A stretch of 63,149 bases of DNA, counting the filler, from Atractiella rhizophila (lineage: Eukaryota): assembly GCA_021432655.1 (NCBI GenBank). It is 3 parts of 3 records of this genome, joined end to end, with 100 filler letters (N's around TTAATTAATTAA, not from the genome) between each part and the next. Parts side by side here need not be neighbours in the genome. Positions count along the whole stretch, not along the records: positions 22,881 to 45,504 come from MU271812.1; 2 more parts are not named here. One strand, given 5' to 3'. Positions 22,781 through 45,604 of the stretch are shown here, piece by piece. Made by a program: the position numbers and the translations under genes. The stretch's first letter is position 1. Every line of letters starts with the position of its first letter. Under the pieces are notes generated by a model. It had not been told where the DNA came from. It saw only the letters and a list, made by a program, of their open reading frames with translations, and made no database searches.

Positions 22781-22880
22781 NNNNNNNNNNNNNNNNNNNN
22801 NNNNNNNNNNNNNNNNNNNNNNNNTTAATTAATTAANNNNNNNNNNNNNNNNNNNNNNNNNNNNNNNNNNNNNNNNNNNN
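22781..22880. other. Artificial contig linker N44-TTAATTAATTAA-N44
   Basis: Exactly 100 nt. The central 12-mer gives stops in all six frames; identical structure at 45505-45604. Confidence 0.97.
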
Positions 22881-23764
22881 CTAACGTAGGGAGGATGCGC
22901 AGGTTCGCCCGAGGAGTCATGATAACCAATTCGAGTTCCAATTCACCCAGATTGATGTTCGCCGCAGCATGAGAATAGACCTCGCGAGTACCTGGCCAGA
23001 AGTAGCGATATTTCGCCGCATCCAATTCCTTGTCGCCGATTCGCACTTTTCCGTCGCGCACTACGAATTCGGTGACCGGCGCACCGGCGAACGGATTTCG
23101 ATCCCCCAACGCTGCAGGCAGAACAAAGGTTGTCGCAGTAACCAGATGGTCAGAGAGGGTCCTCACAACCCCGACCTCGGGTCCTTTCACCGCCGAAATC
23201 GATTTTTGCGCTCGCAAATTTTCCTCCGCCACTCGTCGCTTATTTTCAAGCGCTACCCGTTTACGTTCCTCTTCTTCCTTCGCCAAGCGTTTTTTCGTGC
23301 CAGACAAGAAAAGCTCTCGTTCTTTCCTTCGCAAAACAGGGTCGCCATTCGCCGACTCGGAGGGCTGAAAACCGAGTTTCACCGCTTCCTCCTCGACGAG
23401 CACCGCTTGTTCGGCCCAAAGACGAAGTTCATCACGCAATGCCTGCAGACCTTCCACAGGCATCTGCAGAGGAAATGACAAAACCCGTCTATCACCGAAA
23501 CCTTTGGCAGCCTCATAAGCCATTCGCACCTTCCCATCGCCGATGGGTTACCATACAAAATATATGAGACAAGAAAACTCCCTCAGCCTGCACCTCATCA
23601 CAAAATTTGACATACAGAGGGTAGCACCTTTTCCCCCACTCCAGCACATCGGCGAATCGCCCAAAGTTCACCTCCTTCGCTTTCTCCATGTCCCAGAAAA
23701 TGGTGCTCTCCTTGCTATCCTTGTTCGCCAGAACGAAGTCGAAGAGTTGCGCATCGGTCGACAT
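22881..23764 (-). CDS. Hypothetical protein with coiled-coil region; 3' end lost at linker (continuation recoverable from the mirror copy has CxxC motifs)
   Basis: ATG at 23764 (MSTDAQLFDF), probable intron near 23530-23595, then ORF open from 23529 to the gap. Confidence 0.6.
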
Positions 23765-24257
23765 TTTTGCAAGAAGTAGACGGAGGGTGATGGTGGTAGA
23801 ACTGAAAAAATTTTCGCCCAAACTAGCCGCAAACCTTAACTTTAAAATTCCGTGACTCACGTACACGAGTCAGAAATTTGGGGGTGTTGTCAGGCTTGCC
23901 CCAACGCATTACCGAAATGCACCATCTGAAGTCACGTGACCTACTTTACCATGCCATAGGACCACGAGCCTGCCCATCGCCGCTTTGCTCACGTTCTCGC
24001 TGATCGCCGCCTTCCCCTGTCTCACACTAATCGCCGCTCAGCAAACCTTAAACATTTCGCCAGTCTGCACCGTCTCCATTATTGCTTTATTGTCCTTTCT
24101 CACTTGTACTGCTCAGTATGTCTTATTTCCGAGTTTTCCTTTTATTGCTTTCCTGATCTAGCTATCTTACATGTTTCAAGAAACTTATGATACAGTTTAT
24201 GGCAGTGCTTTTACATATGGATATATACATCGAGATGTAGTGGTGGTGACCTCAGAG

Positions 24258-24334
24258 TATTCTCTTAGGTTTACCTCCACTACAGGTTAGTCTCCTCATG
24301 CCATACTATTCTCTTAGGTTTACCTCCACTACAG
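24258..24334. repeat. 28-bp direct repeat TATTCTCTTAGGTTTACCTCCACTACAG x2 with 21-nt spacer
   Basis: Copies at 24258-24285 and 24307-24334. Confidence 0.9.
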
Positions 24335-25900
24335 ACGCATCGCCTATCGGCGACCGCACATAGTGTCAGCCCTAACAAGCAGGTAAGAGTATGGACTAAG
24401 CAAGTTATTACAACGTACCTCACAAAGTCCGCCCAGTTTACTGATGATGACCAGCCCTTTTCCTTTCCTTTTGGGGATGATAGTCTGAAGCGCATCATGA
24501 GAAAAGCAAAATTCACGGCATTTTCCCAATGAGAGATTGACATGTTTTGGATTCAACAGAGTTGGATTCGGTTGCGCATCTTCATCGACCAACAGTCTTT
24601 GTAGTTTTTCCCTTAACGATTTAGGAAGTACTGAAGGCAAATATGCATCACAGAAGGGGCACAATGCTTTTCTAAGAATGTTTTGAATAAGCCAGTAAAT
24701 TGTATCTTAACCGAATCATGCTACCAGGGACTCACCCTTCTTTTGCAGTTGCAAGGGCAGCTGTATCCTCTTCATCCTCCTTCTGCTCGTCTTCATGATT
24801 TCCTTCATCCTGGATGCCTGAACCAGAACTGGAAGCCTTTGGAGAAGAAAGTGAATGTTCAGGTTTGGATATAGCTTTTAATCCCAAAAGCATGCAGGTT
24901 TGCTGGCATTGATGTAAATGTTCAAAGCTTAAGATAGTTTCTGGCGAATATTGTAAGCCCGGATGCCTATATGAATATGTTAGAACAATTATACGGAAAG
25001 AAAATTCTACCCATTGAGGTTATCACCACACATCACTAACACATCTGTAATGTATGGCCAGACTCCTGTTTCAATTGTATTTCAATTGTATTAGATGTCA
25101 ATAGCCATTAAGATCAAGTTGACATTACCCTGCAAGTCACAAATTAACATTGACCCCTTTGTAATCTCATATACGGCGCGTTGTAAACCTAGTAAGACAT
25201 CTATCCTTTTAAAATCTTCGGTCACCTTTTCCGATGGCTCAATCACAATCTTGATGTTTGAACTGGCATCAATCCACTTTGTCCACTTCTCTCCCATCTT
25301 GATAACACTCTCTAGGTTTGGTTCAAGAAGCATATATTGAATTGCCGAGCCTTCCTTTTTCCTTTCCCTCTAGCTGCCAGTGGGACCAGTCGTAAGTGGC
25401 GGCAATAGGTGTGACAAGTTGTGGGAGGAGTTGTGGGAAGTTATGCTGCTGGTCTGCTCGTACTCGTAATTTACGAGAAAGTGACAGGTTGATGATTCGT
25501 TCGAACAGACTATGGGTCCAACGAAAAGCTTGAATATCGTGGAAGAAATAACCTCTTTGCTTTCAGCGACTGTCAACATACTTCCATGAAGCCGTTATCC
25601 TTTTCCCCTTTTTCCCCACTCCAACAAGCTTAATCCATTTCTTAATTACTACCTCTTTCTGATCCAAACATCCATCTTCCTGCAACCAACCTGCCAAAGC
25701 TACCCGACTAGCTCCTCGCCCTACTTCACGCTACGAGATAACCAATCGTGCTGTTGTAAAGGAAAACATAGATAGAAAGGGTGAAGGTGAGTCTTGGCGC
25801 AATAGTTCTTCTAACGTTGATGGTTGGATCGGAATAATTCTGATCATGACGCCCCCATGAGATAACCAAGGTGGCAGGAGATCATCAGCAGCCAAAGCTG
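24330..25900 (-). pseudogene. Alpha-kinase-like domain spliced to an RTC4-like CxxC region; frameshifted/degenerate
   Basis: Spliced translation YMLLEP...WTKW...AVYEITKGSMLICDLQG|VWPYITDV...G|HPG...FEHLHQCQQTCMLLGL, then acidic linker and LCPFCDAYLP...NP...FCFSH...IIPK(frameshift)GKEKGWSSSVNW. 5' boundary uncertain. Confidence 0.65.
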
Positions 25901-26254
25901 ATCCCTGTTTACGCTCTTCAAATTGGAGTAAGGTCGGAGAAAGCAGACATTTTCGATGAAATGAGTAATTTTCTCAACATAGTCATTTCTTCGTCAACAA
26001 TAATCAGTTTCACACTTATGTACGTGCTATCACATTTGAACATGTGCTCCTTCTGCAACAACAATCTACCCTCCTTATCTGGAATGCTCTGTCATATAAA
26101 AAGCCCTCCTCCTTCCTTTGTATTTCGCTAGGAAAAGAGGATCAATAAAAGTTTCTTCTTCGACTCAGGTTCCTTCTCATGTAAAAGTTTGTCCTTACTT
26201 CTGTGAAAAGTTATTCCTTATTCTTATCCAGGATAGTGCTCAATTAACTGTGAG

Positions 26255-26359
26255 CTGATCCCCAGCGAAATGAGATGGTGGAAACGCTCAATGACATGAA
26301 ATGAAGCTACATACCTGATCCCCAGCGAAATGAGATGGTGGAAACGCTGGGGAATCAGG
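26255..26359. repeat. 34-bp direct repeat (period 60), second copy closing a hairpin
   Basis: CTGATCCCCAGCGAAATGAGATGGTGGAAACGCT at 26255 and 26315; CCTGATCCCCAGCG (26314-26327) pairs with CGCTGGGGAATCAGG (26345-26359). Confidence 0.9.
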
Positions 26360-26566
26360 TTGGCGATGGCCCTAACCCTATGTACACGTGCCGACGAGTG
26401 GAGAACAAGATAGAGAGAGGGAAATGAAGCGAGAGGAAACGAGCGAATGGAAGGAACATGAACGAAGCGAGAGAAACGAGCGAAAGGAAAGAAAGTGACG
26501 AAGTAAAACGGAGTCAAGTGGTATGTCCCTCTCTCACATTAACAAACAGAACTTTGTCGATTCGAC

Positions 26567-27505
26567 ATGTTCTCTGCCCAGTTTTATGCAATTTTGGCAT
26601 ACACCAATGCTTCCTGGATGGAACTGGGCAAGGTGAGGTTGTTGCAGATACTGAAATTGTATGTGAAGGTATGTCCTGTGTTGCTTCTTCATTTCTTCTT
26701 TATACTTACCCATTGGCAAGGGATGACTGAAGGGCTTCCAGCAACAATTCAATCTTGGCAACAGAGCTCTACACCATTGATCCCAGATAATACAATTGTT
26801 TACTTTTCTGGCAATATTCTTGTAGTTGCTTCGAAACCTATCATGTTGATGGCCGAAAATGTCTTCCCCATTGGAAACATTGAACATATCGAGCCTGCCC
26901 CAAGCATGATTTCTGCTCTTGGCTCAGTCAACAGTATTACTGGATCCCAAGACAATGCTATGATCACCTTTACAACAGGATGTTGCATGAAGACTGCAAA
27001 CAGTCCGTAAGTTTGTCTTCCATTCCATTTCACCACTTCACTTTTCTCATTTTCCACTTCAGGGCCAAGTTATACACTTCAAGATGCATGCTAAAAGAAG
27101 CGGCAAACGTTTCTTAAAACGGCCTCTGCCCAATCCCGGTTCCTCCATTTTCTTCGTGGCAATCCATCTGTTGATGATGCTTTGATCATCTCAATCAACA
27201 CTCAACTCAACCTTGCTAACTCTGCATCTTCTGCTTCCACAACTGGAGGCAAAATCGGCACTTGGGCGGCAAAGAGGAAATCGAATGCTTTGATCAGTCA
27301 AAACGATGGGAAACACAGCATTAGCATTGGTCAGAGGAATGAGGAAGCCTCACCCATCAAGAAGTTGAAGAAGAATGCTCTCAGGGCGTCTGGGAGGGGC
27401 AGGGTAAAGAGGTTGAAAAGGGGCAGGCTGATGAAGCCAATGTTTTTCTCGAACCAGACTTTGATGATGTTGATGAGAGTTACATTACTCCTATCAGCCA
27501 CTAGG
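26567..27505 (+). pseudogene. Beta-rich (possibly tandem OB-fold) hypothetical protein with frame disruptions
   Basis: Pieces MFSAQFYAILAY, IPDNTIVYFSGNI, MISALGSV and KRPLPNPGSSIFFV followed by a K/S-rich tail. Frames shift at non-intron positions. Confidence 0.35.
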
Positions 27506-27911
27506 TTCGTCTCCATTTGTTCATCTTACCTGCTAACAGAGTCCCTTGCCACTGTCATTGTCCAGACTATAACTGTTGAAGTAGTAATTTTGCCTTGTGT
27601 ATCTTTATATATGTGAATTTACTGTTGTTTGGCTCTTGCAAATATTGCATAAAATAGTTCAAGTTGTAATCTATGTCTGCCGTCACTTAATCCCGAAGGG
27701 AAGGGCAGCCTTGTTCAAACCGAAATTTCTCCCCCTTAGCTGTGTGGCAGCCTAGTAGTCTAGAGCCAGCTCTTTCTACCACTACTAACCACTTCTCCCA
27801 CTTGTTCATTGGGACCACGGCAGGTCGAGTTGAAGTCGAAAGTGCCAAAAATTCGCCGAAGGTCAAGCCGACCGCTTCGGCTCCGTCGCAAACCTCCTCA
27901 CAATCTGCTCG

Positions 27912-29298
27912 ATGTCCGCCGAAAATCAATCCTCAGCACCATCTCTTCCGCGAGGCAAGAAGCGCAAAATTCCATCCGGATTAACCGGCGTTCAGTTGTT
28001 CCAAACCTACACCGCTCTCGACCAAGCTTTGGGGATCTTCCTGACATGCCCAACAAATGAAGAATTGGACGATAGCGACGTTGATGTGAAAACCAAAAAC
28101 GCTTTTTTGGAGAGGCTGACGTCTCTTCGAGATGACCTTGGTAAGAAAATGGGGTCGCGCAAGGTATGTCCTCTTCGCTGAGTAAGTTCTGGGTGGCTCC
28201 GTAGTACCATTCAACCACATCTATCTCCATGCTCCATTTGGCTTATCTCTGACGGTTTACGCGTTCATTAGGACATCTCGTTCTCCTGTACGAAGGAGGA
28301 CATGGTTGCCACCTACCTCAGGCTCAAAACTGGGTTAACCTTCGGCTCCAAAAATCTAGACCAATCGATTATTGACACAAAAGTGGCCTCGTCGAATAAC
28401 CAGGCATACATGTCGTCGGAACAGTTTTTAATGCACCTCACCATGATTGAGAATTCTGTTCCACCGATTGTAACCGTTTCACGTCTCCCCCGTGTCTATT
28501 ACTCAGCACTTGTCACATAGAACGAAGCAGCTTCTCGGGTGCGCATTGACGCATTTCTATTTCGCCTACACGCCATGTGTCCCAACGACCACTATACAAT
28601 GTTCAATTTGGATATGTACAGTCAGGCATTGTCTGCAGAGGCTGTCCACCAGAAGCCTTCCCACCTCCAAGGTTACATAGACTACACTATTATCTTGAGT
28701 TCAATAAAAGCGAAAAACTCGTGTATGTTTCTCATTACTAACATAAGGGCTAATGACCAAATTACTTACTGTTCTCTTCCTAAGTTATACCAAATTTGAA
28801 CAGTGGTGCTTCTCTCAAAATCATCAATCTGAAGCGTGCCTGTCCGAAACCTGTTGCATTTTTCGTCCTCGAAGGGAAGACACTAGACTACAAGCTCGTT
28901 AACCACATACCTCAGGCGCAGCTAGAACTTTATGCATGTGCTCAGCAACTTGGGTCCGTCAGGTTTCAAGATTCAACCTCATTTCGATGCTAATCAGCCT
29001 GATTTTCAGAGTATCAATCATTCGAGGATGTTTGTCCTCTGGACGGGAATGGATTTTCCTCTCCCTCCAGCTTGCGGAAGATGGTGAGGTGTACTTTCAA
29101 AGCTCTGTCGGCATTCGATACACTGTGGATTGGAACTGGGACAACTGTCACATGTCTATTGCTAGGGGTAAGAATGATCCGAATCACATTTCAATCTTGC
29201 TGGATCATTGGGTGAAAAATAGCCAGAAAGCTTTAACGGCAGAAAATGATGGAGAGTTCTTTTTTATACTTGATGATCCTAATCAACCTAAGCGGTGA
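27912..29298 (+). CDS. PD-(D/E)XK restriction-endonuclease-fold protein (HsdR_N-like motif order), copy 1
   Basis: Five exons giving NEAASRVRID (28521), GYIDY (28671), FFVLEGK (EGK at 28871), IPQAQLEL and IRGCLSSGREWIF. Confidence 0.7.
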
Positions 29299-29397
29299 TA
29301 CTCGTGTAACACGTGTAAACACAATGAAACAATATTCCCTCCTCTATTTAATTATGAAGGCTCGAACCCTTGTGGCACAAAAACACTAACACGCTAG

Positions 29398-30156
29398 TTA
29401 TGACGAGGATGCTTCCGGCGGAGGACATTCATACTCATATTTCGGCATGGCTCGCGGTGAGGCTCCCATATCGTGCATGACCGGTTCGACCTCATGTCTG
29501 TACCTTTTCGCCATCACACCTGGATAGAACCGTTCAGAGTAAGTATGGTTTGAGGACGGAACATACGCTCATCGAGGAGACATAAGCAAGCATCTTCCAA
29601 CGGAAGAGCAACTTCGTCTTCCCGGTACTCGGGAAGAAGGATGGAGTCGTCGAGGACGATAGAACACTGAGATCGATTAGTGCTGAGCCAGCGTCGACTC
29701 GGGAGAAGAACTGCGCACCGAAGAAATGTCCACCGGTCGTCGCACTTCCAAAACTTTCCGCTCCTGACCGTCCACCGCAAAATCACATTCGAAGAGGATG
29801 TGATGACTGACATTTATTGGCGTTTCAGTGCCCGGAAATGTCGACGCCCGGATTTTGTTGTCGTCCGGTAAGCGCTTTTTGTCAATGAGAACAAACTCTT
29901 CTCCAACTTCGAGAGTCTTATACGGCTCCTTTGAAGTAAGAGCGCCAATTTGTTCTTTGTGCTCCCTCCAGATGACACGCTTTTGCGGTGGCGATCGATA
30001 TTCTCGTCCGCTTTTTGGGAACTTTAGGTGATAACTTTGAACTATGCTCCAAGTGATGGAGTAGATGTGAAGCTTGGAAGGAGGGGAAACGAGGGAGAAT
30101 CCGAGAACAATTATCCCTGATACCATCATATTGCGAGATGTTGCCCTGGCCATGTA
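29398..30156 (-). CDS. Possible arrestin-fold protein, 3' part (copy 1, cut by the 25-N gap)
   Basis: IRASTFPGTETPINVSHHILFECDF...RKVLEVRRPVDISS|CSIVLDDSILLPEY, resembling an arrestin C-domain followed by an LPxY motif. Confidence 0.4.
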
Positions 30157-30181
30157 NNNNNNNNNNNNNNNNNNNNNNNNN
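30157..30181. other. 25-N assembly gap
   Basis: Exactly 25 N. Confidence 0.97.
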
Positions 30182-33100
30182 TGGTTGGTAGAGGGCTTGA
30201 CATGAGTTCGTACCGGTACTTTTCCTTTTACTCTTTGGCGCTCGCTTCACCATCCTTTACCTTACCTGGATGGCTGTTGATGAAGGTCTGACAAACGTCA
30301 GGAGTACGTTGTAGGACCTCCTTTCCACTACGTATGGTAAGAGGACCTTAGGTCCTCCTACCCTTTCTACTTACTCGGTTCTCGTCTTTTGTACGAGTCC
30401 GGTCTCGAGCTATACAAGTTCCAAAGGTTCGCCCTCTCCTCTCGAGTTGAAAGCCGGTAGTTGTACTATCCAATGCTTCGTTGCCTGTTCTTCTGACGGT
30501 CTTTTCATTTGTTAACGTCTTCGACGCCTAGTTACCTAGCATCTCGGGAGAGGGAGTTCTCACATTATCAAAGGTCCTTCGGGAAGTCAGTAGGGAACGG
30601 TTGCCCATTCTTCTTTCTTCTTTCCTTCTTCGTTGTGTCCTGTATGGAAGTGTTTGTTAAAGTCATTGACGTTGTTGGAGTGGAACGGTTACACGGTTGG
30701 TCCTTCGTAAGCACATAGGAGTTTTGACGTAGTTGTTGACCCGTAGGGTTCTTGTAGAGCTTAGCTGTTTGAAGACATATGGTTGTGGTCTCTCCCTGTA
30801 GTGGTGAACTGAGGCAAGATGAGGCTGTGAAAGAAATGAGGGGGAGGAAGGAGAGGGAGGTTTCGCTAGTAGACGGAAGGTAAGCGGGTAAAGGCGGGCT
30901 CCGTACAGTTTGGTGAGAGATAGGAGATGCGGTGGGCTGTAGTCCGTGCACATGTATCCCAATGCCCGGTAGCGGTTGTACTAATGGCGGTCGCTTAGAT
31001 GTGGTATGCCAGTTCCGCTCCTCTGCCTAGTCCTTCCCTCGCTGTAAGGTACAGTAATTCGTAAAGCCCGTTGTAGAATCCTTGTAAAGCTCCCTCCTAT
31101 TCGTGTGTCACTTCTCTCTTGACCTACGGCGCCACCTTCTTCTTCTTCCCTCCTTCACCACTTGAAGAAAGAACCTCCTGTCCAAGTTCCCCCTAGCTCT
31201 CTTGTTTGACCAATAGCAGGGAGTAGGACCCTCCTTCTACCTTGGAAAGTTCGGAAGTCTTACTTCTGTTCTTGGCCATTTCTTCGGCGAGTAACTTCAG
31301 GAGTTGCTTTGTGTTTCCTTAACCTCCTGCCGAAGCTTATGCTGTCTACGTTGTGACAAGGTCTGCGAGGAGGGCTTTGTCGCGTTATCTTGAGAGGTCG
31401 GAGGGCAGATGTATCGTCTGGAGAGGCGGATGAGTCCTTGTGGTATGCCAGAGTTCCCTACCTCCTACTCTCGTGCTTGCTCTAGTTCGCACATCTTGAA
31501 CGGGAGCTCATACCACTCCCAACTGCTCTGCATTTGCTGCTACCCCTCTTTTACCATACGACGTGAAGTAGGTTTTAGAGAGGAGAGAGATCTTGACATT
31601 AGGTCTACTAACTGGTGTCGCCTTACCCATGTCCTTTTTCGGCACCTAGACCGGTTACTAGTCAGGATCGGTGGAACTTATTAGACTTGTACTCCCGCAG
31701 TACTCGTCTTCTTCTCCCTATATAATTAAGGTTAGGTTGGTAGTTGCAGTTTTCTTGAATAGCGCGGTTCTGAGTGTGAGTGGGACTAGCCTAGATGGTG
31801 GTCAAGATTGTAATGAGACCCTTGTCTTGTAGCTATCTCGTAATAAAGGAGGGGTGGGTGAGGTGGCGCAGGGCGTGTTGGTAGGATCGAAGGGACCGGT
31901 CCTCGATGCGCCCATCGAAAGCGTCCAACGAGCGTCCGGGGTTAGGTAGCTTGAGAGTGTTAGTTCGCTTTCTGGAGGGTCTTTTGGAATTAGCGCGCGA
32001 GCAACTGTTACGTCATTGGAGGCAGGCGTGGCCTCGCCCCTTCCGCTAGGGATTCCGCTTTTCTCTGCTTGACCGAAGATAAAGGCGCTTCAGAGCTAGA
32101 GGATGGTTCTGTCAGCGCGTTCCTTTCCACTTTCGCGATCTCTTCCTCCGTTGTATAGTAGAGTAGCTTTAAGTTCTGAAGAAGGAAGTCGGTGAGGAGT
32201 TGTCCATGACCTTCATGTAAGCTCTGTACTGCTGGTAGTTGGCGCTTATCGAGTGCATTAGGGGGTTTAATGCTTATGCTCGTCTGGTCTTTGCGTATTG
32301 AAGGGTGTGAGAGGTAGGAGGAAATGCGTCGTGTTTGCAGAGTGCTGAAGAGCTAGTGGGCGGAGTGAAGTTGGGAGCTTGACCAGGGTAGGAGCGGTGC
32401 GAAGACGGTCTTCTTTAGCTCCTTTTTCGCGACTTCACGTGAGAACACGTTAAGTTATCTACGTAGTACTTGGTTTGGTTCCTTCCTTCGAACACTCTTC
32501 AGTTCTACCGCTCTCTTCCGACCTGTTTCACTCTCACTCCGGTCAAGTTTGTCGTTCTAACACTAACTCGGTCTCCTTTTCCACTGGCTTCTAAAATTTT
32601 CCTATCTACAGAATGATCCAAATGTTGCGCGGCATATACTCTAATGTTTCCCCAGTTACAATTAAACACTGAACGTCCCATTACAGTTGAACTAGAATTA
32701 CCGATAACTGTAGATTATGTTAACTTTATGTTAACTTTGTCCTCAGACCGGTATGTAATGTCTACACAATCACTACACACCACTATTGGAGTTACCCATC
32801 TTAAAAGAAAGGCATATTAACAAGATTGTATAAGTATATCCGTAGGCCCGAATGTTATAAGCGGTCTTTGATAGAATTCGAAACTTGTAAATGTAGTTAC
32901 GGTCGTTTGGACGTACGAAAACCCTAATTTTCGATATAGGTTTGGACTTGTAAGTGAAAGAAGAGGTTTCCGAAGGTCAAGACCAAGTCCGTAGGTCCTA
33001 CTTCCTTTAGTACTTCTGCTCGTCTTCCTCCTACTTCTCCTATGTCGACGGGAACGTTGACGTTTTCTTCCCACTCAGGGACCATCGTACTAAGCCAATT

Positions 33101-35100
33101 CTATGTTAAATGACCGAATAAGTTTTGTAAGAATCTTTTCGTAACACGGGGAAGACACTACGTATAAACGGAAGTCATGAAGGATTTAGCAATTCCCTTT
33201 TTGATGTTTCTGACAACCAGCTACTTCTACGCGTTGGCTTAGGTTGAGACAACTTAGGTTTTGTACAGTTAGAGAGTAACCCTTTTACGGCACTTAAAAC
33301 GAAAAGAGTACTACGCGAAGTCTGATAGTAGGGGTTTTCCTTTCCTTTTCCCGACCAGTAGTAGTCATTTGACCCGCCTGAAACACTCCATGCAACATTA
33401 TTGAACGAATCAGGTATGAGAATGGACGAACAATCCCGACTGTGATACACGCCAGCGGCTATCCGCTACGCAGACATCACCTCCATTTGGATTCTCTTAT
33501 CATACCGTACTCCTCTGATTGGACATCACCTCCATTTGGATTCTCTTATGAGACTCCAGTGGTGGTGATGTAGAGCTACATATATATGTATACATTTTCG
33601 TGACGGTATTTGACATAGTATTCAAAGAACTTTGTACATTCTATCGATCTAGTCCTTTCGTTATTTTCCTTTTGAGCCTTTATTCTGTATGACTCGTCAT
33701 GTTCACTCTTTCCTGTTATTTCGTTATTACCTCTGCCACGTCTGGCCGCTTTACAAATTCCAAACGACTCGCCGCTAATCACACTCTGTCCCCTTCCGCC
33801 GCTAGTCGCTCTTGCACTCGTTTCGCCGCTACCCGTCCGAGCACCAGGATACCGTACCATTTCATCCAGTGCACTGAAGTCTACCACGTAAAGCCATTAC
33901 GCAACCCCGTTCGGACTGTTGTGGGGGTTTAAAGACTGAGCACATGCACTCAGTGCCTTAAAATTTCAATTCCAAACGCCGATCAAACCCGCTTTTAAAA
34001 AAGTCAAGATGGTGGTAGTGGGAGGCAGATGAAGAACGTTTTTTACAGCTGGCTACGCGTTGAGAAGCTGAAGCAAGACCGCTTGTTCCTATCGTTCCTC
34101 TCGTGGTAAAAGACCCTGTACCTCTTTCGCTTCCTCCACTTGAAACCCGCTAAGCGGCTACACGACCTCACCCCCTTTTCCACGATGGGAGACATACAGT
34201 TTAAAACACTACTCCACGTCCGACTCCCTCAAAAGAACAGAGTATATAAAACATACCATTGGGTAGCCGCTACCCTTCCACGCTTACCGAATACTCCGAC
34301 GGTTTCCAAAGCCACTATCTGCCCAAAACAGTAAAGGAGACGTCTACGGACACCTTCCAGACGTCCGTAACGCACTACTTGAAGCAGAAACCCGGCTTGT
34401 TCGCCACGAGCAGCTCCTCCTTCGCCACTTTGAGCCAAAAGTCGGGAGGCTCAGCCGCTTACCGCTGGGACAAAACGCTTCCTTTCTTGCTCTCGAAAAG
34501 AACAGACCGTGCTTTTTTGCGAACCGCTTCCTTCTTCTCCTTGCATTTGCCCATCGCGAACTTTTATTCGCTGCTCACCGCCTCCTTTTAAACGCTCGCG
34601 TTTTTAGCTAAAGCCGCCACTTTCCTGGGCTCCAGCCCCAACACTCCTGGGAGAGACTGGTAGACCAATGACGCTGTTGGAAACAAGACGGACGTCGCAA
34701 CCCCCTAGCTTTAGGCAAGCGGCCACGCGGCCAGTGGCTTAAGCATCACGCGCTGCCTTTTCACGCTTAGCCGCTGTTCCTTAACCTACGCCGCTTTATA
34801 GCGATGAAGACCGGTCCATGAGCGCTCCAGATAAGAGTACGACGCCGCTTGTAGTTAGACCCACTTAACCTTGAGCTTAACCAATAGTACTGAGGAGCCC
34901 GCTTGGACGCGTAGGAGGGATGCAATCGCTCGTAGCCTTGCGTCGCTACGTCATTAACATGGCCCTTTTAAGCTCGCCGCGGCCAGTTTCGTCGCTTTTT
35001 CTTCCGATTCCGACTGTTACTCAGAGTTCACACACTGAAGAGGCGACCCGTACAACGTTGGCGCAAGCCAGCCCAAACAAGCGCTACAGTGTCAAGCGCT
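30182..35100. repeat. Mirror (reversed, non-complemented) copy of 22881-~27090 plus ~170+ nt extra; probable assembly artefact
   Basis: Reading backwards from 34927 gives CTAACGTAGGGAGGATGCGCAGGTTCG = 22881 onward. 33541-33566 is the reverse of 24241-24266. Near-identical down to ~32578, noisy beyond. Right boundary lies between ~35090 and ~35230. Confidence 0.95.
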
Positions 35101-36006
35101 CCCAATCACAGGGAGGGAAATGGTTGGGGAAAAGAGGTGTACGGACGGCTTATGGGTCCGCAGCAATTTGCTGAGGAGCGATTGGAGCGCAGTTCTCCGA
35201 AGGTCCGTCCTACTTACCTTTCGAGGCTGACCATCGAGTTGCTGTTGGTCTTTATGAGGTGCGAGGCTAGAGAAGAAGAGGTATTGACACCGCGCATACT
35301 GAGTGGAGAGGTAAACTTCCGCTCGTCCTTCATCCGTCCTCGAACGCGCGAGGAGGGCGAAGAGGACCTTGGTATGCTCCTCCCACTCGTTGTGAACTTT
35401 GGATAGTCCCACACCGTGCACGTAGTCAGCGTTGAAGAAGAGATGTCGATAAATGTCACAGAGAGAATGGTCGCGCAGGAGAAAGGGGATCAGGCAATCG
35501 ATGAAATCGAGCGAGAGGGGGTGGAGCTTGGCGCGTTCTTCTTTTGAGAGAAATGATGCGAAAAGCCTGTAAGTCGACATTGCGACTTCTGCACCTTCAA
35601 CGCTGGCATTGCTATCCGTCTCCGCGTCGCTATCCCTCTTCACAGTAATATCGCCGTCCACAGTGTGCATTCCTGAATGTGAAGGGATGAACCACTCCCA
35701 CAGATCTTGATAACTATCGCCCAATTGTCCATCCCAATCGATGACGATCTTTTGTATGATGACTCTCTGTACGGAGGGCAACTGACGGCGCAGGAAGGTG
35801 TGACCGCGTGCATAAGGGGATGGACGGAGAAGCGCGAGGACATGTTCCTTGGAAGGTAGAGGGGATGAGAGTTGCGCAGAGAGAGAGGGAGACGGGTTAG
35901 CGGCAGCTGGGGAAGGAAGGTCGGCGGTTGCAGGAGGGTTAAATGTAGATGGAGTTAGAAAAGGCGTGTCCTTGGAGTGTCGTGGAAGAATGATGTTTAT
36001 GTTCAT
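35092..36006 (-). CDS. Hypothetical protein (3' end may be cut by the mirror segment)
   Basis: 304-codon ATG ORF with protein-like composition; no family recognised. Confidence 0.55.
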   Translation of the reverse strand: MNINIILPRHSKDTPFLTPSTFNPPATADLPSPAAANPSPSLSAQLSSPLPSKEHVLALLRPSPYARGHTFLRRQLPSVQRVIIQKIVIDWDGQLGDSYQDLWEWFIPSHSGMHTVDGDITVKRDSDAETDSNASVEGAEVAMSTYRLFASFLSKEERAKLHPLSLDFIDCLIPFLLRDHSLCDIYRHLFFNADYVHGVGLSKVHNEWEEHTKVLFALLARSRTDEGRAEVYLSTQYARCQYLFFSSLAPHKDQQQLDGQPRKVSRTDLRRTALQSLLSKLLRTHKPSVHLFSPTISLPVIGSA

Positions 36007-36121
36007 GATGACATTCGTTGACTCGCAACCTTATTTTCAAATACATCCACACAGCATGATATATAGCGAAGTTTCGAAAATTCATCATCATTCCACCATC
36101 TCTCTGCATGCCACGCATGCC

Positions 36122-38365
36122 ACACTCTGCTCAATGTCTGACGAAAATCAATCCTCAGCACCATCTCTTCCGCAAGGCAAGCAGCGCAAAATTCCATCCG
36201 GATTAACCGGCGTTCAGTGGTTCCAAACGTACACCGCTCTGGACCAAGCTTTACAGATATTCCAGACGTGCCCAACAAATGAAGAATTGGACGACAGCGA
36301 CGTTGATGTGAAAACTAAAAACACTTTTTTGGAGAGGTTGACATCTCTTCGAGATGACCTTGGTAAGAAAATGGGGTCGCCTAAGGTATGCCCCATTCGC
36401 TGGGTCCATAGTAGCTTTCGAAGCACATTTTTTTCATGGATTCATTTACTTCATCTATCTCTGACGGTTTCGGGCTCATTAGGGCATTTCGTTCTCCAGT
36501 GCGAAGGAGGACATGGTTTCCACTTACCTTGGACTTAAAGCAGGGTTAACCTTCGGCACAAGAAATTTGGACCAATCGATTATAGACACAAAAGTGGCCT
36601 CGTCGAATAACCAGGCATACATGTCATCAGACCAGTTTTTAATGCACCTCACCATGATTGAAAACTCTGTGCCACCGATTGTATGTGTGTCACTTCTCCC
36701 TCGTGTCTATTGCTCAGCACGTCACATAGAATGAAGCAGCTTCTCGGGTGCGCATTGATGCATTTTTGTTTCGCCTACACGCCATGTGTCCCAACGACCA
36801 CTATACAATGTTCAATTTGGATATGTACAGTCAGGCATTGTCTGCAGAGGCTGTTCACCAGAAGCCTTCCCACCTCCAAGGTTACATAGACTACATTATT
36901 ATCTTGAGTTCAATAAAAGCGAAAAACTCGTGTATGTTTCTCATTACTAAGAAAAGGGCTAATGACAACATTGCTTACTGTTCTCATCCTAAGTTATACC
37001 AAATTTGAACAGTGGTGCTTCTCTCAAAATCATCAATCTGAAGTGTGCCTGTCCGAAACCTGTTGCATTTTTCGTCCTCGAAGGGAAGACACTAGACGAC
37101 AAGCTCGTTAACCACATACCTCAGGCGCAGCTAGAACTTTATGCATGTGCTCAGCAACTTGGGTCCGTCAGGTTTCAAGATTCAACCTCATTTCGATGCT
37201 AATCAGCCTGATTTTCAGAGTATCAATCATTCGAGGATGTTTGTCCTCTGGACGGGAATGGATTTTCCTCTACCTCCAGCTTGCGGAAGATGGTGAGGTG
37301 TACTTTCGAAGCTCTGTCGGCATTCGATACACTGTGGATTGGAACTGGGACAACTGTCACATGTCTATTGCTAGGGGTAAGAATGATCCGAATCACATTT
37401 CAATCTTGCTGGATCATTGGGTGAAAAATAGCCAGAAAGCTTTAACGGCAGAAAATGATGGAGAGTTCTTTTTTATACTTGATGATCCTAATCAACCTAA
37501 GCGGTGATACTCGTGTAACACGTGTAAACACAATGAAACAATATTCCCTCCTCTATTTAATTATGAAGGCTCGAACCCTTGTGGCACAAAAACACTAACA
37601 CGCTAGTTATGACGAGGATGCTTCCGGCGGAGGACATTCATACTCATATTTCGGCATGGCTCGCGGTGAGGCTCCCATATCGTGCATGACCGGTTCGACC
37701 TCATGTCTGTACCTTTTCGCCATCACACCTGGATAGAACCGTTCAGAGTAAGTATGGTTTGAGGACGGAACATACGCTCATCGAGGAGACATAAGCAAGC
37801 ATCTTCCAACGGAAGAGCAACTTCGTCTTCCCGGTACTCGGGAAGAAGGATGGAGTCGTCGAGGACGATAGAACACTGAGATCGATTAGTGCTGAGCCAG
37901 CGTCGACTCGGGAGAAGAACTGCGCACCGAAGAAATGTCCACCGGTCGTCGCACTTCCAAAACTTTCCGCTCCTGACCGTCCACCGCAAAATCACATTCG
38001 AAGAGGATGTGATGACTGACATTTATTGGCGTTTCAGTGCCCGGAAATGTCGACGCCCGGATTTTGTTGTCGTCCGGTAAGCGCTTTTTGTCAATGAGAA
38101 CAAACTCTTCTCCAACTTCGAGAGTCTTATACGGCTCCTTTGAAGTAAGAGCGCCAATTTGTTCTTTGTGCTCCCTCCAGATGACACGCTTTTGCGGTGG
38201 CGATCGATATTCTCGTCCGCTTTTTGGGAACTTTAGGTGATAACTTTGAACTATGCTCCAAGTGATGGAGTAGATGTGAAGCTTGGAAGGAGGGGAAACG
38301 AGGGAGAATCCGAGAACAATTATCCCTGATACCATCATATTGCGAGATGTTGCCCTGGCCATGTA
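36122..38365 (+). repeat. ~2.25-kb direct repeat, copy 2
   Basis: Matches 27900-30156; ends at GGCCATGTA, exactly where copy 1 hits the 25-N gap. Confidence 0.95.
36134..37507 (+). CDS. PD-(D/E)XK restriction-endonuclease-fold protein, copy 2
   Basis: Same exon structure and motifs as 27912-29298, with frame-preserving substitutions in the 5' exons. Confidence 0.7.
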
Positions 38366-38600
38366 CGGCTACCTCATGCCCACGGCAGTCAGTTCATGAG
38401 TATTAGGATGAGTTCGACGCACACCGACATCCTCATGCACATCCTGCACTTCCAGCCCAAGACCAGCTGGTGTGCTGTTCTCCGGTGTCGGATTGACGAC
38501 GAAGTATAATGGCTTATGACAGCTGATGTTTGAGTTGAGGACCCCGACGCCTTTCACGATTGCTGAAAGCTTCTGATAAACTCTTCCATATTGTCCACGA
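37607..38600 (-). CDS. Possible arrestin-fold protein (copy 2); 5' end near the transposon terminus, possibly truncated
   Basis: Same translation as 29398-30156 with extra upstream ORF 38369-38557. Confidence 0.4.
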
Positions 38601-38666
38601 TCGTAGGGCGAGGAACTAGCAGGAATGATAAATGAGAATTCGAAGCTGGATAATTCACGTCCATAA

Positions 38667-40514
38667 GAGCCTGTTTGGCAACTCCCAAATTCGAAATCCT
38701 GGCTGGGGTGAATTGGACGTGAATTGGACCCTAATCCGGGGGGTGTTCAATTCGAGAATATCCGACGTCCATGTCGGCAATGCCAAGGGTTAAAGCTTGG
38801 CATAGAACAGGGAGTCAGGCATTTCAGTGGTTTTAGTTGCATTTTCGGTGTCCAATTAAAACTACATCCCAAAAATAGAATGCTCTGAAAGAGCACAGAA
38901 GAAAACCAAGGCGGCGAAAAGAATGAGTTGCCAACCTGCTGCTGCAGAACAATTATAAGGATGGTACAGAAGTAAAGAGGGAATACTGACATGCACTTAT
39001 CCAATATGGTCCTAATTTCGTCCCAATCACAAGAATCAACCTCATCCATTTGGAACGGAACGCCTAGCCGAAGAAGTCGTAAAGAAGGGGTCTTCTGCTT
39101 CTGAAAACATTGCTCCTCATCCGGGTACCCCGCAAGCTGTGTGAGCGCCGTATGCTTGCCGTTGCTGAACCGGAGTAAGATACGTCGCCAACACTGTCGA
39201 TCCCGCATGAGAAGGAATGAGAACGACTTTCCTCTCCTTCCTCGCTCAAATATTCGCTGCTTGGAGTAAACAGATGCGAGCTCGCAAAACCTTAGCCGCA
39301 AGTTCATTCTTCTTGTTGTCTGACAGATACAGCAACTCACTCATCTTGAGCTCCGTTTGCTCAGTAACTTCTCCACCTTCTCAATTTCCCCCTCACACTC
39401 CTATCGAGACCAAACGTCGAGGAATTGTGGGAGAAAAGACACCCAGTGACAGATTGTGCTCAGGGGAGTGAGACGGATGGGTGTGGGCATGCAGTTCTGG
39501 ACTGCACCATCGGCTGCCACACACAGAAATTACTCAGCAATCGCTCATAAAGGGGAAGAACAATGAAGGTTCTACAACAAAGGTGAATTAGGAGAAGGGA
39601 GGCTCACGTACTGGGTAAGGTGCAACCGATGGCACACCACAGACACCCCCCGTTGCTTCAACAATCCCGGTCATCGCATTTTTTGATGCGGAACTGACCT
39701 GTGATACACGTTATGCTCTTTGGCTCCCTCTGTAAATACCATAGCTACAAATTGCCCGCCCAACTGATCATGCTTTTACATGTTACAACACTTTTGATAG
39801 CACAGGTGGATTGAGATAGTCAACGTAAGAAGAATGGCATGACGTGGTCGTGTTAGCGGAGATGGGGAACGGAAGGCTGATAGCTGTCGTTTGTATCAAC
39901 TGCTGAGCGTAGGGGAGTGTGCAGTAGGGGCAGAGGGGCAGGAGACGAGACGAGATGGAGGATGGCAACTGTTTTGAATTTTAGGCAGTTAACGGCATCT
40001 TTTGATGATTTTGGACTAGTTTTCAATTGCAGGCGGAGAAGACGGCGGAGCCCAAGGGTCAACTCTTCGGTCAGAACACCCATGGCCTGGAATTAGACGG
40101 ATGAACACCCCCCGCCTAATCAGGCAATTCAGCGTACCGTTTGGCGGCCATAAAATTGCAATTCTCAATCTGTGAATTGCAATTCACCCCAGCCAAGATT
40201 TCAAAAATCGAAATCGAGCTCCAGAGCTGTATTTCGATCCTAAATTTCCTGAATTCGTTGCCGGGAGATGAAACGGACACCTCTCGGTCCTGTCAATGAC
40301 CGGGAATGTATTGAAACACCAAAAAAATGCGGATGAGGACTCAGTTGCGGCATGCTCACGGCCAAGCGAATGCAAGCAAATTTTCCAAATCAGAATTGCG
40401 TTTGGCAACAGCTTGAATTCAAATTCTCAATTCAGGAAGCTGCTTGAATTGGATTCCCAATTCAGGCAATTCACAAAATTCGAATTCAGGCTGAATTGGC
40501 AGCCAAACGGGCTC
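38667..40514. mobile_element. Non-autonomous PIF/Harbinger-type DNA transposon (1848 bp)
   Basis: TIRs GAGCCTGTTTGGC (38667-38679) and GCCAAACGGGCTC (40502-40514), 12/13 match. TAA on both sides (38664-38666, 40515-40517). Subterminal inverted repeats present; no transposase recognised inside. Confidence 0.7.
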
Positions 40515-40705
40515 TAAATAGGAAAGCGGGCAAGTACCGAAAGGAAAATGTTACATGTGTTCCCCTACCGTTAGTACTTCTGAGCTTTTAGGCAAGCACA
40601 CTTCTTTGTATAAATAGGAAAGCGGGCAAGTACCGAAAGGAAAATGTTACATGTGTTCCCCTACCGTTAGTACTTCTGAGCTTTTAGGCAAGCACACTTC
40701 TTTGT
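40515..40705. repeat. 96-bp tandem duplication
   Basis: TAAATAGGAAAGCGGG...CACTTCTTTGT starts at 40515 and again at 40611. Confidence 0.95.
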
Positions 40706-40897
40706 CTATCGACATCCACTCTTCGACATCTACGCCTCTGTCAACACGTCTGCACGTCTTTGCGAGGAAGAAGACTGCACAATTATCCACCGCCACCTTG
40801 CCATAACCCTTCACAGTAATAACAATCTCAGGCATTGTCCTGTCTCCCTTGATTATGGTTGGGGTGATTGTGAATGATGGATGCTCTCACCTTGCCC

Positions 40898-42295
40898 TTG
40901 ATAGAGTGAGAGTACATTTTGCCTTGAAAACTGTGTCTGGCGACGGTTGGTCGGGATCGGTTGAAGGATGCAAGTAAGCACCACTGCGAGGGACCTGTAA
41001 GGATATAGTCGGGTAACCTCCAACCATTTGGACTATGCCAGAACAATGGTCATATGGCTTAGGGTGATCAGGTGCCAGAGAAAATCAGACTCGATGCCCG
41101 ACTCAAGACCCACAACCCCTATGCTGTAATATTCCCCCTAATTATTACAGTAAAAGTACTTCAAGGAGCAGAAGCAATCACATTAATGTTATCGGGTAGA
41201 GTTCAAGTTATGATGATTCAGCTCCCATTCTCCAGCTGCCTCGTTCATGGGAGTAGTGTTAAAGGACTAGATCATTGCATCGGAATGGCAAAGTGGCTGC
41301 AATGCGGTCAGATGTAAAGAATGCGGCGCAATGCGAAAAAGAGGCGAGGTGATGACGATGTTGTGTCATAGTATTAATCGTGATGATAGGTAATATCTCT
41401 AACCCCCTTCCCGTCCTCCTTAGGCACCTTGGATTTATATAACCTCTTTATCCTTTACCTCAGCTCACCTCCATCCCTTAGCATCTAGTCCATCCCACAT
41501 TGACGAAGACAACTGGTGGAAGAGAGAATCATGGACATTGACGAGAATTGGTCTGTAAGTTCCATCCCATGGTGTATTGAGCATGAAACCATATTGATAG
41601 AGTGAGAGTACATTTTGCCTTGAAAACTGTGTCTGGCGACGGTTGGTCGGGATCGGTTGAAGGATGCAAGTAAGCACCACTGCGAGGGACCTGTAAGGAT
41701 ATAGTCGGGTAACCTCCAACCATTTGGACTATGCCAGAACAATGGTCATATGGCTTATGGTGATCAGGTGCCAGAGAAAATCAGACTCGATGCCCGACTC
41801 AAGACCCACAACCCCTATGCTGTAAATATTCCCCCTAATTATTACAGTAAAAGTACTTCAAGGAGCAGAAGCAATCACATTAATGTTATCGGGTAGAGTT
41901 CAAGTTATGATGATTCAGCTCCCATTCTCCAGCTGCCTCGTTCATGGGAGTAGTGTTAAAGGACTAGATAGGGATCATTGCATCGGAAGGGCAAAGTGGC
42001 TGCAATGCGGTCAGACGTAAAGAATGCGGTGCAATGCGAAAAAGAGGCGAGGTGATGACGATGTTGTGTCATAGTATTAATCGTGATGATAGGTAATATC
42101 TCTAACCCCCTTTCCGTCCTCCTTAGGCACCTTGGATTTATATAACCTCTTTATCCTTTACCTCAGCTCACCTCCATCCCTTAGCATCTAGTCCATCCCA
42201 CATTGACGAAGACAACTGGTGGAAGAGAGAATCATGGACATTGACGAGAATTGGTCCGTAAGTTCCATCCCATGGTGTATTGAGCATGAAACCAT
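40898..42295. repeat. ~696-bp tandem duplication (two near-identical copies)
   Basis: TTGATAGAGTGAGAGTAC...GCATGAAACCAT at 40898-41593 and 41594-42295, with a few SNPs and small insertions. Confidence 0.95.
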
Positions 42296-42314
42296 CTAAC
42301 TGAAGCTATAACAG

Positions 42315-44372
42315 GTTACCTTCCGCTGGGCGCTCACCCCGTCCCTTCTCTCCACCTTCTCTCCACCCCTTCCATCCTCCCCTTCCGCCAGCTCCACCGC
42401 GAGCATCTCTACATCCACTCCCAAGTCCAGCTCAGCACAGTTACTGATACAAGGTGGGAGACTCAAGTCTCGCCTGTTCTTCAATCGCTTTCGGGTAAAT
42501 CTTTTCGCATTGACCTGTCAGTTTGATGAAGCTGCATGGTACAGGTGAGGATAATACAGGAGGACGAGCGTATCCGCTGGCTTCTATACAACGACTCCGA
42601 CGCAAGCGCCAAGAACACCTCCCTCTTGCCCTCGCCCTCACCCTCACCAACCGGCAACATTCATGTTTGCATGTCTGTATGTCAACGCCCCTGCCGTCTC
42701 CAAAAGCGTCTAACTTAGTATACCCCGATGCGGACAGTTATACCTGGGCCTAAACCCTCTACTCCAGCCAACGGGCATGGATCTGGAACCGGAGCCGTAC
42801 CATCGACATGAATTCCAAGCCGCGGGAGATAGGAAGGGAAGGTTGGGTGAATTTTGGTGGACACGGAAGGCTTGGGAGGCGCGCAGAGAGGTGTTGGGGG
42901 CAGAGGTATGTCGGCTTTCTCTTGTCTTCTTCTTAAGGACCAGAGACCGCTTCTATTCCACTCGCTGTTCGTTCTCTTCCTGTGATACTTTCATAGTTGC
43001 AGCCTCTTCTCACTCACGAAAGTCTGGATATGCGCTGAGAACGAGAGTCATCTTTATATCAGAAGTAACTCCAAGTAACTTAAAGGCGAGGGTCCCTGAT
43101 AGGAGCGGTTTTCCTGGGCATTGGACGTTGTTCCATGCTGCACGCTTTGTACAGAATGCTGACATCACCAATGCCTTCCAAATAAATAGGGCTGCACGCT
43201 CGTTGTCGCCGTTCAATCTTTCCCGCTTCCCACATCTCCATCTCTCACTGAGGTAGTTGAGCATCAGCGTGCTAGACTGGAGGCAGAAGATTTGTCAGAA
43301 GAAAGGCAGCAAGTTCTGGACACTCTATTCGACGATCCTACCACCGCAGATGTCGTTTTCGTGTTCAACAAAGGGACGAATGAGCAGAAGCGGCTATTTG
43401 CGCATACTTCTGTCCTTTCCATCGCGAACACCAGGTTCGGCACCAGTACGTCTTCTCAGTTCTTCCTTCAATTATCTAATCCTAATTTACTCTTGTGAGG
43501 GTAGTGCTCTCTAAAACTGATCAGCCACGAGAGAAGAGACGAGCATCCAAGGACCTCATTTCTAGGCCTGACATCAGTACTTTCCGACATGTTTCGCATT
43601 TGGGCCTCGATCAACTGGATGGAGACAGTTGGCGAAAAGGGAGTGACGGAGTGGGACGCATACTGGACGGCGTGAGGAGTCTCGCTTCTCCACCACTCAT
43701 GACTTCAGGTATGGTTTCTCCTGTGCCAACACCGATCACCAAGCCCGGTCATCCAACGGTATGTCCATTCCTTCCTCCTCGTTACAGTACGAGAGATTGC
43801 TGAGGTTGCCTGGTGCACTCGGGAAGGGCAAGGAGAGGGACAGTAATCATCATACATCTCCGATTTCATTACGGACGTCGAAACAGTACGACGAGCGTTC
43901 CATCGAGAGGACATCCTACTGTTCTTTCTGGTCGCTTGTACGCTACCTCTACGTTCGACAAGTTTCTCTTTCTCCTGAAGACGCGAAAGAGGTATACTGT
44001 CTCGCTGTGGGTGTGTTATTACTTCTGACTCGTCTTCTTCCGCTCGAGTTAACCAAACCCATTGGTAGAATACGATGTTCCGGGACTGAAAGATGCCGCA
44101 AAAGCTGCCGTCATCAATGCTCTGACCACGACAACCGTGGTAGAAGAACTCATGGGTTGGGCATCCGGTGGGAAGGGGGAGAGGGCAGAAATCAGACGGG
44201 AAATGATAGAATATCTCAAGATCCATTGGGTGAGCAGCTGCTTTTCTCCCCTTAAGCAGTCTGGGTTCGGAACGTTGATGTGCCGTTTCGGAGGCAGGAG
44301 GAGGTAAAGCTTGCAAATCAAGGAGCGGGAGGGACGTGGTTCGAAATCTGTGAGGTATTGGCTGGGCAATGA
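42315..44372 (+). CDS. BTB/POZ-domain protein with internal CRIB motif and possible N-terminal MATH-like domain; first exon not found
   Basis: LFDDPTTADVVFVF...KRLFAHTSVLS and SYCSFWSLVRYLY...AKEVYCLA|VEYDVPGLKDAA (BTB), with ISRPDISTFRHVSHLG at 43558-43605; stop TGA 44370-44372. Upstream exons VTFRWAL...LKSRLFFNRFR. The join near 42900-43260 is not resolved. Confidence 0.7.
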
Positions 44373-45504: not shown

Positions 45505-45604
45505 NNNNNNNNNNNNNNNNNNNNNNNNNNNNNNNNNNNNNNNNNNNNTTAATTAATTAANNNNNNNNNNNNNNNNNNNNNNNNNNNNNNNNNNNNNNNN
45601 NNNN
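45505..45604. other. Artificial contig linker N44-TTAATTAATTAA-N44
   Basis: Same 100-nt structure as 22781-22880. Confidence 0.97.

Follow-up and report, generated by a model that had tools for sequence, protein, structure and literature searches.

A mirror-written block beside a 25-N gap in an Atractiella rhizophila record is very probably a gap-filling extension blended from two sequences

The window analysed here is a stretch of 63,149 nt, filler included, from the genome assembly GCA_021432655.1 of the fungus Atractiella rhizophila, in which parts of three records are joined, and its positions 22881–45504, taken from record MU271812.1, hold a block written as the mirror image (reversed and not complemented) of neighbouring DNA. 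A sequence-only reading had drawn attention to this block and had ascribed it to a strand-handling software error beside a gap of 25 N, an artefact reading that our analysis upholds. The mirror block spans positions 30182–35107. In its left, noisy half, two accurate but unrelated sequences are blended column by column, and one of them carries the 3′ part of the telomere length regulation gene TEL2; gaps almost never win in this blend, and its ties are broken in the order A>C>G>T on the minus-strand letters. Breaking ties by alphabet is something that code does, and this fingerprint makes the software origin evident without any reads. The block is not a real feature and no new biological process is involved; that it is a gap-filling extension written by software, and not natural DNA, is almost certain.

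Results

A block of the record mirrors its neighbouring DNA

Global alignment of the reversed, uncomplemented string indicated that, over 2,352 nt, positions 34927–32575, read leftwards, equal 22881–25232 except for three differences, namely an extra letter at 34044, an A/G pair at 24062/33745 and a G/T pair at 24220/33587, the last being the example given by the sequence-only reading, whose claim of a ~2.35-kb copy with rare differences holds. By blastn of the window against its reversed, uncomplemented self, 34927→32448 was aligned to 22881→25345 at 98.8% in an alignment of 2,480 columns, with additional pieces extending to 30212, paired with 27067. The longest exact mirror run was 1,012 nt, compared with 17–22 nt in 10 shuffles, and when 30182–35107 was left out the longest exact mirror match was 19 nt, so that the window contains no other mirror block. 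Leftward of 32575 the copy continues as a noisy one, in which 2,375 mirror letters represent 1,848 source letters, to ~27090 paired with 30182; relative to the source at 25233–27090, 533 letters are extra and 6 are missing, and 1,602 of the 1,848 source letters are matched. No minus-strand self match of the window was obtained with blastn at E 1e-5, and the block is indeed invisible to ordinary BLAST.

The strand grammar of the window was assayed with an order-3 Markov model that compares, in 1-kb bins, the DNA as written with its complement. The score was positive in all 56 held-out bins and negative in all five bins of the mirror block, with the switch point at 35057–35084, and the TA/AT ratio was 1.55 in the block versus 0.63–0.68 elsewhere. 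The mirror DNA is of mixed sequence, with a GC content of 0.44–0.53. The right end of the block was earlier placed at 35100 or 35230, neither of which stood: the TEL2 match and that of a contig of sequencing run X4 both begin at 35108, and because the real DNA starts there, 35101–35107 were assigned to the mirror block. At its left end, the adjoining 25-N gap was located as described earlier (Table 1).

The block was also said to explain an ORF desert at 31.7–32.8 kb. A desert is real, as no ORF of at least 100 aa lies between 30952 and 33575, but it is only mild, the longest stop-free stretch within 31700–32800 being 114 aa. Genes called inside the block are indeed false, and these comprise the ORFs at 30568–30951, 33576–33887 and 34259–34591 as well as the start of that at 35089–35406.

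Two proteins are legible only when the block is complemented without being reversed, namely residues 276–333 of P0002 and residues 288–941 of P0005. The first stretch is encoded by 34928–35100, with 58 of 58 residues identical. By this protein match, 34928–35107, which has no source in the window, reads as DNA that would naturally lie to the left of 22881 and would continue the gene cut at the record start.

Table 1. Positions of the mirror block, its components and its surroundings in the window
Feature	Position	Strand	Basis or remark
Record linker, 100 nt (44 N, TTAATTAATTAA, 44 N)	22781–22880	.	Joins two separate records
Clean-half source; 5′ part of dispersed gene (P0001–P0003), cut by scaffold start	22881–25232	-	Alignment, protein matches
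Blend input 1, left-contig DNA unrelated to TEL2	25233–27090	.	Alignment
Duplicate copy 1 (direct, 2.26 kb, 95%); spliced P0006-like gene	27899–30156	+	Ends exactly at gap
25-N gap	30157–30181	.	Seen in sequence; directly left of mirror block
Extension anchor, 21 nt; reversed, it is the overlap with right contig start 35108–35128	30182–30202	.	Side-by-side comparison, by eye
Blended half: union consensus of left-contig DNA and TEL2 3′ part	30182–32574	.	Protein match, substitution matrix, back-translation
Clean half: reversed copy of 22881–25232, 3 differences	32575–34927	.	Alignment
Extra mirror-written 180 nt without source in window	34928–35107	.	P0002 match, Markov switch
TEL2 real 5′ part (telomere length regulation protein), cut at junction	35108–36006	-	94% to P0005 1–295
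Duplicate copy 2, head to head with TEL2, ~125 nt apart	36121–38365	+	Self blastn
Record linker, second, 100 nt (44 N, TTAATTAATTAA, 44 N)	45505–45604	.	Scaffold end

The noisy half spells the 3′ part of TEL2

P0005 is a protein of 979 aa that carries the TEL2 domain PF10193 (Telomere_reg-2) at residues 614–734 (E 5.5e-25, 88 bits, cut-off 23.6), and, like the other nearest protein matches, it is labelled Atractiella rhizophila. It follows the minus strand of the window from 36006 up to residue 294 and then departs. Residues 288–941 were found instead in the complement-only reading of 30183–32537 (joint E 1e-91) and in neither strand of the source, with residues 288–309 falling on 30183–30248. 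That P0005 was itself derived from the mirror block is very unlikely, given its open frame of 979 aa and its PF10193 match. The real TEL2 part of the window, which corresponds to P0005 1–295, gave no Pfam match, and it precedes the PF10193 domain. As written in the record, TEL2 is P0004, a protein of 304 aa (35092–36006, minus strand) versus 979 aa for P0005; its last four residues and its stop come from the mirror block, and it is listed in NCBI/nr.

Contigs (Logan) of four sequencing runs, X1–X4, were laid on 22881–36120; such contigs report presence only. Those of X1, X2 and X4 cover 35226–35883, and GT..AG introns are spliced out in the X4 contigs. One X4 contig fits the window from 35108 on and is preceded by 105 unlike letters, a loose end that was sought elsewhere in the window and not found. 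The 30 letters of it that are shown encode, as translated by hand, P0005 295–303, and compared by eye with reversed 30203–30232 they are equal at 23 of 30 positions, six of the seven differences obeying the tie rule described below. Two candidate interpretations of this junction were dropped: an intron donor at 35109 behind the loose end, as P0005 carries on in the loose letters with no splice between, and a mirror block reaching 35225, as real TEL2 sequence covers 35108–35225. Metagenome scans with P0004 and P0002 returned 112 and 92 pattern matches, respectively, of which none was confirmed, and they yielded no natural DNA across either junction.

The TEL2 content of the noisy half was then assessed by degenerate back-translation. 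The TEL2 pattern scored 1,505 on the complement of the mirror and 12–36 on six controls, which were the source (17), both strands as written and three shuffles. Letters that do not come from the source fit the TEL2 pattern at 703 of 780 positions, a lenient count because of the degenerate positions, and reciprocally, of the 569 letters at odds with TEL2, 492 equal the source. The TEL2 component ends near residue 941 of 979, at ~32540–32575, before its stop. TEL2, a member of the TEL2/TELO2 family, is here an ordinary gene that the artefact has broken, and its 3′ part is kept solely as a component of the blend.

Substitutions in the blend follow alphabetical order

Written in minus-strand letters, 239 of the 240 substitutions from source to mirror run toward the alphabetically earlier letter, which gives a triangular substitution matrix, and all 29 isolated substitutions do the same. 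Under three other alignment scorings the counts were 244/249, 244/250 and 76/76. As direction controls, the natural duplicate gave 42 of 71 toward the earlier letter, five shuffles of equal composition 64–71%, and four unrelated stretches 48–57%. Compared with the TEL2 pattern, 91 substitutions of the blend go to an earlier letter and 13 to a later one. Nine union consensuses were also simulated from the source and unrelated DNA; these had a length of 2,315–2,433, with 473–585 extra and 0–6 missing letters, and with 133–188 substitutions toward the earlier letter versus 0–10 toward the later, compared with the observed 2,375, 533, 6 and 239 versus 1, so that all nine resemble the noisy half in kind.

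These results bear on the origin proposed by the sequence-only reading, which had taken the noisy half as the raw-long-read tail of 25233–27090. On that view, software mirrored one long read or consensus, the noisy half being its uncorrected tail; the anchor would lie at the clean end, and the truth would be restored by complementing in place. A single-read mirror agrees with a clean half near the right contig and a noisy half far from it, like a fading consensus, with extra letters far exceeding missing ones, and with the adjoining 25-N gap. Read errors, however, would not spell 650 TEL2 residues, nor would they have an alphabetical direction, and complementing in place would join the cut repeat gene to the cut TEL2, whereas both the X4 contig and P0005 continue at the 30182 end. 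A raw-read tail is expected to carry insertions and deletions together and no base direction, a pattern absent from the noisy half. Its earlier described lengths stand; its nature as a read tail is refuted by the TEL2 content and the triangular matrix, and the single-read mirror as a whole is now highly improbable. Our own first reading, with the anchor at the clean end, the complement in place and a mis-oriented left contig, was likewise dropped after the P0005 match.

A gap-filling extension is the proposed origin

TEL2 runs from 36006 to 35108 and resumes at 30182 in the complement-only reading, which means that the block sets out where the right contig stops on its minus strand. Given this blended nature, the anchor must be sought at the noisy end (30182) and not at the clean end, and reversing the block in place mends the junction; for the same reason, complementing should not make reads fit the noisy half, contrary to the good mapping that had been expected of the whole block. 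The true plus strand to the left of 35108 would accordingly be given by the TEL2 component when this is read in the backward direction, starting at 30203.

By this geometry the block extends the right contig to the left and is to be read on the minus strand, outward from 30182; it should have been reverse-complemented and was only complemented. For its making we propose the following route. A scaffolder would have joined two contigs that share the 2.26-kb duplicate at 95%, either as alleles or as paralogues, and a gap filler would then have taken two accurate long sequences as extending the 5′ end of the right contig. Of these, the TEL2 input would be the true extension, and the left-contig input would be a wrong one, recruited via the duplicate. 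The two inputs would have been force-aligned and their consensus called on the minus strand, and this consensus would have been complemented without reversing and pasted beside the 25-N gap. Past 32575 left-contig-type sequence alone remains, ~99.9% accurate and running 180 nt beyond the start of the left contig; such accuracy suggests that corrected or otherwise accurate long sequences served as input. By its likeness to described fills, PBJelly is probably the program that wrote the block, an attribution that we make with clearly less assurance than the gap-fill origin itself.

Several observations weigh against this account. One of the seven differences between the X4 loose end and the block breaks the tie rule, and 13 substitutions relative to TEL2 run the wrong way, P0005 being another allele (4 of 434 fixed positions differ between P0005 and the real TEL2 5′ part of the window). 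Of the 2,393 letters of the noisy half, 77 fit neither input, with introns or misalignment as candidate causes. The simulations produced 141–191 substitutions, fewer than the observed 240, under aligner settings that differ from those of the program. Upstream of the duplicate, the distance to the anchor is ~0.8 kb for the left copy and ~1.0 kb for the right one, and the 1 kb before each copy shows no homology (local score 23 versus 21–23 in controls), so that recruitment via the duplicate would need a forced alignment. The X1 and X2 contigs differ from the window at many fixed positions and possibly represent another strain. Finally, no published report of such a gap-fill fault was found in the literature searched, a scope outside which supplements, most subscription papers and software trackers fall.

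Contig coverage was not counted on either side, given that contigs indicate presence only. Of 30 bins over 22881–36120, X1 and X2 each covered 20, X4 14 and X3 three, X3 holding a small share of the window and not being used for habitat or strain. Ten bins at 30395–34814 had zero depth in all four runs, and no contig of X1–X4 spans the mirror block. In the best run, 0.60 of the words of 32500–42499 were present, a region of which a quarter is mirror, and this value was not counted either.

A variant of the gap-fill origin would place the orientation fault after assembly, in a format conversion, an AGP-like layout or the joining of records, acting on a correctly placed blend. Blend and flip are logically separate errors, and the records are joined with artificial linkers, so later handling does exist. 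Yet the flip, which includes a 21-nt untrimmed overlap, spans exactly the interval between the 25-N gap and the point where the real bases of the contig start, a boundary of which a later step would hardly be aware. Moreover, NCBI/nr already lists P0004 with the end that it takes from the mirror block, so that the joining of records into this window is not the cause. We regard this variant as even a little less probable than the single-read mirror, and it would alter merely which step erred, the block being an artefact either way. A biological process that copies DNA in mirror image, parallel-stranded or complement-free, has in its favour that the mirror relation is beyond chance, but it can be dismissed as vanishingly improbable: every known polymerase makes copies that are antiparallel and complementary to the template, chemistry has no alphabet by which 239 of 240 differences would follow A>C>G>T, half of the block is woven, letter by letter, from two unrelated loci, both of its ends are assembly features (the 25-N gap and the contig start at 35108), and it would destroy TEL2, the natural continuation of which shows in X4 and P0005.

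Neighbouring features of the record

The cut gene at the start of the record is a dispersed one, P0001–P0003, matched at 22881–24079 (minus strand) together with the mirror-written 34928–35100; the matches are 54–90% identical and come from three different contigs. No Pfam family reached the cut-off for P0001–P0003, with a weak DUF4218 match in P0003 lying elsewhere in that protein, and residues ~283–329 of P0002 are rich in Cys and His. Contig depth is high over 22881–23764, which hints at many copies, and the gene is possibly that of a transposon. At two short stretches of the source DNA, 23888–24377 and 26249–26538, the X1 and X2 contigs add up to a very high depth and have many loose ends with sharp borders; these stretches contain internal direct repeats of 33–34 nt and are likely high-copy small elements. 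Among 28 ORFs of the window scanned against Pfam, five had matches, to the Exo84 PH domain and other eukaryotic families, and none of the five lies inside the source of the mirror block.

The 2.26-kb duplicate begins roughly a dozen nt upstream of the start codon of a spliced gene for 290 aa (P0006/P0007), which in copy 1 has GT..AG joints in X4, and a second, minus-strand transcript is found inside the duplicate. A contig joint 36120→27899 was seen in X1 and X2. P0007 (84–91% per exon) is on a contig of 122,723 nt, a length shared by the contig of P0005, which gives no more than a hint that TEL2 beside a P0006/P0007-like gene is a conserved layout. Contigs of X3 and X4 run past 30156 with letters unlike those from 38366 onward.

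Farther to the right, two tandem duplicates were noted, each of which may be natural or a remnant of gap closing: one at 40515–40706 (96 nt, 99%) and one at 40898–42295 (~697 nt, 98%, with seven substitutions in both directions and seven gap letters). At 38690–40205, two nested inverted repeats (26 nt, 92%; 30 nt, 73%) enclose ~1.4 kb with a 197-aa ORF, and this region is possibly a terminal-inverted-repeat element.

Discussion

In its present form the record gives TEL2 a false end that leaves 304 of ~979 aa, and a further 180 nt, although real DNA, are present in it in back-to-front form alone. It is possible, although we hold this more tentatively than the attribution to PBJelly, that the block exemplifies a fault, so far unreported, that recurs in a long-read gap filler in wide use, which would write complement-only, blended extensions beside 25-N gaps. 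If so, public assemblies would carry kb-scale back-to-front blocks hidden from BLAST and gene callers, and if the fault is systematic, claims of gene loss or truncation drawn from such assemblies need a check. Inverted strand grammar together with triangular substitutions would then offer a quick, read-free screen that recovers hidden genes such as TEL2.

Among known systems, an inverted duplication resembles the block in having a nearby second copy in opposite order. Inverted duplications and fold-back (missed-adapter) reads are reverse complements, unlike the block, with which the window has no minus-strand self match. Mirror repeats that form H-DNA share the same-strand mirror symmetry. By one definition, however, a triplex motif has only purines on one strand and a spacer no longer than 10 bp (10.64898/2026.07.21.739710). 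The block, in contrast, mirrors mixed coding DNA over 2.35 kb at 99.9%, and its arms are 7 kb apart.

The closest likeness is to a PBJelly extension. PBJelly writes overfilled gaps as exactly 25 N, and the block adjoins a gap of 25 N. Neither the complement-only paste nor the alphabetical tie-break appears in the available portions of three descriptions (PMC3504050, PMC6240028, PMC8848313), and in this respect the block is unlike the described fills. The 2012 version of the program assembled reads with ALLORA (English et al. 2012, PMC3504050), error-corrected reads serve as its input in practice (PMC6240028), and its fills show overfilling and an accuracy of 88–96% (PMC8848313). The 2012 paper defines a gap as 25 or more N, demands that extending reads come to 25 bp or less from it, and, for one data set, ascribes 444 of the 1,007 gaps that were overfilled (44%) to wrong joins where the gap was negative (PMC3504050). 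The 21-nt anchor overlap of the block, 30182–30202 with 35108–35128, lies inside that 25-bp distance, and the flanks of the gap share 27899–30156 and 36121–38365 at 95%, as alleles or paralogues, a setting in which a wrong join or a negative gap may have arisen.

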